From Escherichia coli (lineage in GTDB: Bacteria; Pseudomonadota; Gammaproteobacteria; Enterobacterales; Enterobacteriaceae): a stretch of 64,000 nt of DNA. Below, one piece after another: positions 23,124 to 23,886 of this stretch. Below the pieces are notes generated by a model. That model had not been told where the DNA came from. It was given only the letters and a program-made list of their open reading frames with translations, and made no database searches. The stretch is taken from assembly GCF_045037415.1 (NCBI RefSeq), contig NZ_CP173438.1. One strand, given 5' to 3'. Position 1 is the stretch's first letter. The number at the start of each line of letters is the position of its first letter. Position numbers and translations under genes: made by a program.

Positions 23124-23886
23124 TTACTTACCAGAGGCGATACGATCACGGATGTGTTGCGCACGCTCTGTTGATGGTGGGTGAGAATCAAACATGGACT
23201 GGGTGTGACCGCCATCCAGGCTAGCGAGTTTTTCAAAGCTACCAACCAGCCCCTGGGTACTGATGCCACGTTTCTTCAACAGATCAAAGGAGAAATCATC
23301 TGCTTCTGACTCTTTATCACGGGAGTATTTAGCATTGATAGCGCCTTCTGCGATATCACCCAATTGTGAGCGGGAAAGCTGGGAAGCCACACCGCTGGTA
23401 GCTGAAATGGCATCGCGTGCGGCCACGATCGCATAAGAAGCTTTCATTTCAGCCAGCGAGTGACCCAACGCGACGTGGCCCAGTTCATGGCCCAGAACGC
23501 CTTCAATTTCGTTGTCGTTCATCATGTCCATCAGGCCACTGTAGACACGAACACAACCGTTCGCCATCGCCCATGCGTTGACGTCGCTGGTCATATAAAC
23601 CTTATAGTTGACTGGCGTGCCATTAATATTGTTACCCAATGCTTTGGCGATTTTTGCCAGACGTTTCCCGTACTTGCTGGATTTGCTTGCCACTTTATTG
23701 CCGCTGTCCATTTCGACACAGCCCTGATTGGCGATTGCTTTAGCATCAGCATCGCTTAATGTTGCGGCTTTATAAGCATTCAGACCTGAGCTGATAGCCA
23801 AATCGGTATTAATACCGTGCGTATTCTGACATCCTGTCAGTAAGGCTGCAGAGGTCGCAATCGCCAGCAATAATTTAGTATTCTTC
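23124..23886 (-). CDS. ycaL: M48-family metalloprotease lipoprotein YcaL, 5' end split off by prophage insertion
   Basis: HELGH zinc motif; lipoprotein signal LLTGC; in-frame host sequence ...KNTKLLLAIATS continues up to 23886, but the ATG and codon 2 lie at 60932..60939 on the other side of the prophage. ORF track falls back to a TTG at 23870. Confidence 0.8.
23881..23886. repeat. Left copy of target-site direct repeat (ttcttc) flanking the prophage
   Basis: Identical hexamer at 60932..60937 immediately outside the other prophage end; true duplication may be 5 bp if one terminal base belongs to the element. Confidence 0.6.

Follow-up and report, generated by a model that had tools for sequence, protein, structure and literature searches.

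Here, we show that the ycaL gene of an Escherichia coli genome has been cut in two by a transposable prophage. In the stretch analysed, 64,000 nucleotides of contig NZ_CP173438.1 (RefSeq assembly GCF_045037415.1; hereafter the window), the prophage splits the body of ycaL from its ATG, its Shine-Dalgarno region and its promoter. The body of the gene lies at one end of a BcepMu-like phage, Phi2 of the ST131 strain EC958, and the initiation signals lie at the other. We infer from the sequence, with a probability of about 0.7, that stable lysogens express ycaL hardly or not at all, because its own promoter has been lost, because the sole phage transcription unit that faces the gene is probably off and ends in a hairpin, because the frame meets a stop 14 codons upstream, and because the ATT and TTG starts that remain are poor.

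A gene parted from its start codon

The ycaL open reading frame, on the minus strand, ends in TAA at 23124..23126, and its upstream portion reads ...Q-KNTKLLLAIATSAALLTGC..., with the codons CAG AAG AAT ACT AAA TTA TTG CTG GCG (Q-K-N-T-K-L-L-L-A) at the junction with the phage. In K-12, where the gene lies between aroA and cmk, the uninterrupted start is GATTCAC-ATG-AAG-AAT-ACT-AAA. In the window, ATGAAGAA is found at 60939..60932 on the minus strand, where GATTCAC ATG AAG AA adjoins the end of aroA. These initiation signals, from the ATG through the Shine-Dalgarno region to the promoter, thus lie 37 kb away, at 60937..~61000. The identity of the gene is supported by its neighbours, cmk directly downstream and aroA beyond the prophage, as expected of an aroA-ycaL-cmk locus. 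Over 254 residues, the encoded protein differs from K-12 YcaL at seven positions. It keeps the HEXXH motif, as GHELGH, and precomputed hits assign PF01435 (Peptidase_M48) to an identical 254-aa protein.

Upstream of the junction, the frame runs back into the phage, with 14 sense codons between the TAA at 23928..23930 and the AAG (K2) of ycaL. No ATG, GTG or TTG is present in frame between this TAA and the TTG at 23870..23868. These observations bear out much of the initial annotation, which ended the ycaL body at 23886 (the phage starts at 23887, with TTCTTC duplicated at 23881..23886), placed ATG-AAG-AA 37 kb away at 60932..60939 (exact, on the minus strand), and noted a stop 14 codons upstream. 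It had also described TTG 23870 as the only in-frame start left, inside the lipoprotein signal sequence. The codon is indeed Leu7 of the signal peptide, and it is the only one left among canonical starts, but RefSeq uses the in-frame ATT at 23906..23904. What that annotation overlooked was the nature of the element, a transposable BcepMu-like phage, and the ATT start under which the lesion is hidden.

Joining the two flanks, minus one copy of TTCTTC, yields 780 bp that are 100% identical to uninterrupted aroA-ycaL sites, including those of Nissle 1917, NU14, ATCC 25922, APEC O18 and many other B2 strains. The split gene together with 171 nt upstream is nucleotide-identical to an intact allele (L009), and many empty serC-aroA-ycaL-cmk-rpsA sites encode exactly the same 254-aa YcaL, His228 included. 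By these comparisons, TTG 23870 (CTG in K-12) and His228 are ancestral and not responses to the insertion. We considered TTG 23870 as a compensatory mutation and ruled this out, as uninterrupted B2 strains have the same codon, and so does the identical intact allele. Likewise, His228, which is Arg in K-12 and Nissle 1917, was ruled out as a sign of decay, since the same protein is found at many empty sites. The annotation of one otherwise identical empty site, that of KSEC38 (NZ_CM194011.1), has an IS1 family transposase between aroA and ycaL, an independent mobile-element strike in this short region.

A transposable phage that struck ycaL by chance

The features on which the analysis rests are collected in Table 1. 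Functions of the phage genes were taken from the RefSeq annotation of an identical copy and from PHROG searches. The minus strand encodes helix-turn-helix (HTH) regulators, the DDE transposase, the ExeA-family protein, Gam, gp16/GemA and Mor. The late set on the plus strand comprises holin, transglycosylase, DUF3486, DUF935, minor head and virion morphogenesis proteins, as well as a P2-like set of sheath, tube, tape-measure and baseplate proteins, tail fibres and a recombinase. The PHROG searches additionally identify a repressor-like HTH protein. We take the ExeA-family protein (27892..29058) to be the counterpart of MuB, from its position and name. Assignment to the BcepMu type rests on the DDE transposase and its partner, on TG/CA termini with repeats, on the occupation of many sites, and on the genome layout. 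In addition, a 4.7-kb stretch of the phage is 100% identical to Escherichia phage PhiKM, which is classified as Bcepmuvirus.

The crossover sites of Phi2, which bound an invertible segment of 2,067 bp, have been published (PMC4134206, Table 3). Both of these 26-bp sites match the window exactly, at 58159..58184 (+) and 60201..60226 (-), where no match would be expected by chance, and because of this the element is, by sequence, Phi2 of EC958. The terminal repeats of the phage are mirrored, with the outermost copy 11 bp from the TG/CA terminus at each end, and are likely transposase-binding sites. Both the ATT "start" at 23904..23906 and the in-frame TAA at 23928..23930 fall inside these repeats.

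Table 1. Coordinates of the split ycaL gene, of the prophage and of the elements bearing on ycaL expression
Feature	Position	Strand	Remarks
ycaL body: third base of codon 1, codons 2-254 and stop	23124..23886	-	frame intact
ycaL product class: M48 metalloprotease lipoprotein	23124..23886	-	by sequence orthology
In-frame TTG (Leu7), only canonical start left	23868..23870	-	248-aa product beginning MLAIATSAALLTGC
Left copy of 6-bp target duplication, TTCTTC	23881..23886		GAAGAA on gene strand
BcepMu-like (Bcepmuvirus) transposable prophage, Phi2 of EC958	23887..60931		37,045 bp; termini TG...CA
Left terminal repeats	23887..23932	+	GAGATAAATG 23898..23907 and GAGATATTTATG 23921..23932, 23 bp apart
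In-frame ATT, RefSeq/PGAP start of ycaL	23904..23906	-	260-aa WP_029364556.1; inside phage terminal repeat
TAA closing the ycaL frame upstream	23928..23930	-	inside phage terminal repeat
Weak sigma-70-like match, TTCACA-16-CATATT	23969..23996	-	9/12 matches; outward to ycaL
Strong hairpin, candidate terminator	23997..24042	-	8 nt past mor stop, then short U-run
Mor/C-family transcription activator	24050..24439	-	phrog_532, E = 7.8e-46; last gene before ycaL
DNA transposition protein	27892..29058	-	phrog_296, E = 8.1e-93; RefSeq "ExeA family protein"
DDE transposase	29069..30838	-	phrog_310, E = 3.7e-147; RefSeq "DDE-type integrase/transposase/recombinase"
Lysogeny switch	32699..33101		repressor-like HTH gene 32745..33101 (+), divergent from early promoter-like site
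Invertible tail-fibre segment and DNA invertase	58159..60853	+	crossover sites 58159..58184, 60201..60226
DNA invertase, Gin/Hin-type	60281..60853	+	phrog_125, E = 1.3e-94; 78 bp from phage right end
Stub open reading frame: native ATG and 2 ycaL codons fused to phage end	60814..60939	-	41 aa, MKNDAPRDKC...
Right terminal repeats	60888..60931	+	CATTTATCGC at 60888..60897 and 60911..60920, 23 bp apart
Right copy of 6-bp target duplication, TTCTTC	60932..60937
Orphaned ycaL start codon, ATG	60937..60939	-	GATTCAC-ATG-AAG-AA, as at K-12 start
Displaced ycaL 5' region	60940..61040	-	weak Shine-Dalgarno match GGA; now directed into phage right end

An identical phage adjoins yibQ in FDAARGOS_1267, with the same TG/CA termini and a different 6-bp duplication, AATAAT. 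This second insertion fixes the length of the target duplication at 6 bp; duplications of 7 bp or 5 bp, which we had entertained, were dropped on its evidence. Left ends of related phages are present in 640 of 5,426 complete E. coli genomes, adjoining many unrelated genes, among them yibQ, cbtA, gcd and a TonB-dependent receptor gene. A second locus and another duplication for the same phage show the insertion to be a chance transposition that was not directed at ycaL, and not site-specific integration.

In principle, the split could be an artefact of assembly or scaffolding, or the product of site-specific integration by the serine recombinase at the right end, with ycaL as attachment site. 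A recombinase-family gene does lie 78 bp from the phage right end, and a short identical sequence does flank the element. However, identical junctions occur in 357–359 complete genomes, which speaks against an artefact, and the recombinase is an invertase of the Gin/Hin type (phrog_125) that adjoins an invertible tail-fibre segment whose crossover sites have been published. Moreover, the phage carries its own DDE transposase and transposition protein, and the copy in FDAARGOS_1267, together with the varied loci of its relatives, refutes site-specific integration. We regard the chance that either explanation is correct as close to nil.

Of the 5,426 genomes, 357 have the left ycaL junction and 359 the right one, and EC958 itself is joined to ycaL in the same way. 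That the junctions are identical points to a single insertion event that has since been inherited. The junction-carrying genomes show some variation. In strain 4/0 (NZ_CP023849.1), the right and left junctions (at about 0.958 Mb and 1.037 Mb) are on opposite strands, about 79 kb apart, an arrangement suggestive of a chromosomal inversion that has one of its ends within Phi2. In E41-1 (NZ_CP028483.1), the distance between the junctions is ~2.5 kb longer than in the window, suggesting an extra insertion inside Phi2. Several others, including NZ_CP032201.1, NZ_CP027534.1, NZ_CP018979.1 and NZ_CP018970.1, give a second match to a query spanning the ycaL junction, and for some of these there is also a second match to the phage left end alone. 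Such second matches may represent extra copies of Phi2 or of a relative, in which case the phage is still mobile.

Other features of the prophage have less bearing on ycaL. An orphan DNA adenine methylase is encoded on the minus strand at 33218..34072, in the control region of the prophage, and corresponds by position and annotation to M.EcoMIV of EC958. M.EcoMIV of Phi2 is reported to be absent from ST131 clade A, and in EC958 the Phi2 methylase was predicted from reverse-transcription PCR to be inactive under the conditions tested (PMC4659465). At the left end of the phage, a perfect Shine-Dalgarno sequence followed by a two-codon open reading frame (AGGAGGAATATGCAATAA) lies at 23962..23979 on the plus strand, directed into the phage. 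An Rfam scan of the whole window returned no family at gathering score.

Prospects for ycaL expression in the lysogen

The promoter region left behind with the ATG contains a promoter-like site, TTATCA-16-CATAAT, at 60999..60972 in the displaced 5′ region. In K-12, the aroA-ycaL spacer was found by genomic SELEX to be bound by RpoS and RpoH holoenzymes (PMC5493296). In the window, the displaced promoter heads the stub open reading frame of Table 1, which is antisense to the invertase gene and overlaps its 3′ end.

Transcripts could in principle reach ycaL from the phage. Every early gene, from ~32416 down to mor (24050..24439), is on the minus strand and aimed at ycaL. The early arm begins at a promoter-like site, TTGATA-17-AATAAT (32727..32699, minus strand). 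Because this start lies beside a divergent repressor-like gene, the arm is probably off in a stable lysogen, judging from the organisation of the family. The hairpin downstream of mor has a predicted free energy of -24.8 kcal/mol (z = -4.35), and none of 200 shuffled sequences folds as well. Once its two terminal A-U pairs open, it is followed by UUUUCAC, making it a candidate terminator of the early/middle transcript. A simple terminator scan made no call between mor and ycaL; the hairpin's 12-nt loop exceeds the limit of that scan.

In the initial annotation, ycaL expression was proposed to depend on read-through from the early arm of the prophage, which would couple YcaL to induction. The geometry on which this idea rests is real: the early genes down to mor share the ycaL strand and end 163 bp from the junction, and the simple scan shows no canonical terminator in between. 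However, a divergent repressor-like gene forms part of the switch from which the arm starts, so that in lysogens the arm should be shut off, and the strong hairpin with its short U-run comes directly after mor. For its translation, any read-through transcript would still have to rely on one of the two poor starts, ATT or TTG, and induced cells lyse, leaving no lasting benefit to the host. We therefore consider expression by this route very unlikely. A Mor-YcaL fusion, or any other phage-YcaL fusion protein, is ruled out, since mor stops at 24050 and the frame is closed by the TAA at 23928..23930.

Of the two translation starts left to ycaL, both have been adopted by annotators. RefSeq begins the gene at the ATT, inside the phage, and GenBank submitters begin it at TTG 23870 (248 aa). 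At least 1000 contigs are recorded with each form, and neither form is marked as a disrupted gene. Upstream of ATT 23906, the predicted energy of pairing to the anti-Shine-Dalgarno sequence is +2.7 kcal/mol, i.e., there is no Shine-Dalgarno match, and upstream of TTG 23870 it is a weak -1.0 kcal/mol. By comparison, pairing is -3.3 kcal/mol for the native ATG at 60939, and -6.9 to -9.2 kcal/mol for mor, gemA and cmk. The TTG product keeps the lipobox, LTGC, and has an n-region devoid of Lys and Arg. Export is expected to be impaired when a signal peptide has no positive charge in its n-region. The ATT product, MYLKSNQKNTK..., also keeps LTGC, and its longer, positively charged n-region gives it a normal-looking lipoprotein signal peptide. 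Thus, a complete lipoprotein signal peptide joined to a functional start is not apparent in the sequence: the ATG is 37 kb away, and the TTG and ATT starts are poor. Previous work has shown that AUU initiates at ~0.02–3% of the level of AUG even with a good ribosome-binding site, and that the only confirmed AUU starts in E. coli are those of infC and pcnB (bioRxiv 10.1101/063800). Most likely, the intact 260-aa YcaL that RefSeq derives from the ATT is an artefact that arose when the start was called by homology.

The structure of the locus shows how the gene was split. Phi2 transposed to a point just after the ycaL start codon, duplicating TTCTTC, so that the ATG, Shine-Dalgarno region and promoter remained at the right end of the phage and codons 2–254 remained, unchanged, at the left end. 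In the lysogen, the repressor-like gene would probably keep the early arm off, and the hairpin past mor may stop transcripts short of ycaL. Any initiation at the TTG would strip all positive charges from the lipoprotein signal peptide of YcaL.

Several points weigh against silence of the gene. Only about four U residues follow the hairpin at 23997..24042, and termination there may be inefficient. A promoter-like pair of hexamers does face outward from the phage end. The native Shine-Dalgarno sequence of ycaL is itself weak (-3.3 kcal/mol), and the gene may depend little on such pairing. A TTG start does exist, and mutants of the Lpp signal peptide that have no positive charges can still be exported, with reduced efficiency. 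Finally, the body of ycaL is undecayed, which fits a recent insertion and fits continued use equally well.

It is also possible, though we think it unlikely, that YcaL is made in lysogens at a low but useful level, from a weak promoter at the phage end or from spurious mRNA, with initiation at the TTG or ATT. The promoter-like site at 23996..23969 faces ycaL just past the hairpin, both starts are in frame, both products retain LTGC, the signal peptide of the ATT product looks normal, annotators use both start models, and the gene has not decayed. On the other hand, the outward match (9/12) is no commoner than in shuffled sequence, with three sites found and 2.1 expected. The ribosome would find no Shine-Dalgarno pairing before the ATT and very weak pairing before the TTG, AUU is an inefficient start (0.02–3% of AUG even with a good ribosome-binding site; bioRxiv 10.1101/063800), and the n-region of the TTG product carries no positive charge. 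A more specific version takes the RefSeq model at face value: the AUU start at 23906 would come from the phage repeat, and a weak outward promoter from the end of the phage. We hold this to be very unlikely. If true, ST131 clades B and C would make an N-terminally extended, correctly exported YcaL under control of the phage end, the AUU would be a third natural one in E. coli beside those of infC and pcnB, and the end of a transposable phage would have rescued the very gene it struck. Silence or near-silence of ycaL remains the reading that we favour. We looked in the literature for data on ycaL expression in ST131, proteomic data included, and found none.

Significance and comparison with known systems

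Worldwide, ST131 clades B and C dominate among multidrug-resistant extraintestinal E. coli. Should the above inference hold, every strain with this junction is without, or nearly without, YcaL, and strains of these two clades are probably ycaL mutants of natural origin. YcaL is an outer-membrane lipoprotein protease that clears substrates stalled early on the β-barrel assembly machinery, BAM (bioRxiv 10.1101/2020.07.30.230011). No fitness or barrier phenotype has been seen on its loss in Salmonella, nor any in E. coli screens (PMC11481492). Since the ycaL mutants described are without obvious phenotype, the loss probably has little physiological consequence. The lesion would nonetheless be relevant to studies of envelope stress, and of drugs targeting BAM or LptD, in ST131 backgrounds. 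It also matters for pan-genome and pseudogene counts, in that RefSeq lists ycaL as intact (260 aa, from ATT) and GenBank lists 248 aa (from TTG). In addition, the ycaL-Phi2 junction provides a fixed lineage marker that can be tested by PCR.

Gene disruption is classic behaviour of Mu-type phages, and Phi2 is a described prophage of ST131. What appears to be unreported is the beheading of ycaL in Phi2-carrying ST131, masked by the RefSeq ATT start. Within the library searched, no paper names both ycaL and ST131, and ycaL is absent from the main text of the EC958 papers (Forde et al. 2014, PMC4134206; Forde et al. 2015, PMC4659465). The event is ordinary in kind, an insertional knock-out, and its main value lies in the annotation caveat and the lineage marker.

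The arrangement shares with Mu-type insertional inactivation a temperate phage of ~37 kb, DDE transposition into an essentially arbitrary site, TG...CA ends, a short target duplication and a gene split as the result. The target duplication of phage Mu is 5 bp, whereas that of Phi2 is 6 bp, and the early genes of Phi2 run toward the genome end, not away from it as in Mu. In the BcepMu family, the transposase is reported to be of the Tn552-IS1604 type and not MuA (PMC2771037, PMC2628397). Among the named members of Bcepmuvirus, Phi2 can be likened to BcepMu, phiE255 and Escherichia phage PhiKM. Its layout is that of BcepMu, with a bottom-strand early cluster that includes the transposase, a top-strand late cluster and a central control region, and the two also have in common P2-like tail genes and TG/CA termini (PMC2771037, PMC2628397). 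Unlike BcepMu, in which such a system is said to be absent (PMC2771037), Phi2 has a tail-fibre inversion system with its invertase.

For ycaL itself, a close parallel is found in Salmonella Typhimurium SL3261, in which the 5′ end of the gene, beside aroA, was lost to a mobile element. There, the lipoprotein signal sequence is gone, and SL3261 is taken to be a ycaL mutant without detectable phenotype (PMC11481492). The loss in SL3261 arose during laboratory strain construction, a transposase-gene scar replaces the 5′ end, and the whole signal peptide has been removed (PMC11481492). In contrast, the Phi2 insertion has cost ycaL only its ATG and upstream signals, and it is a natural event inherited by a lineage.

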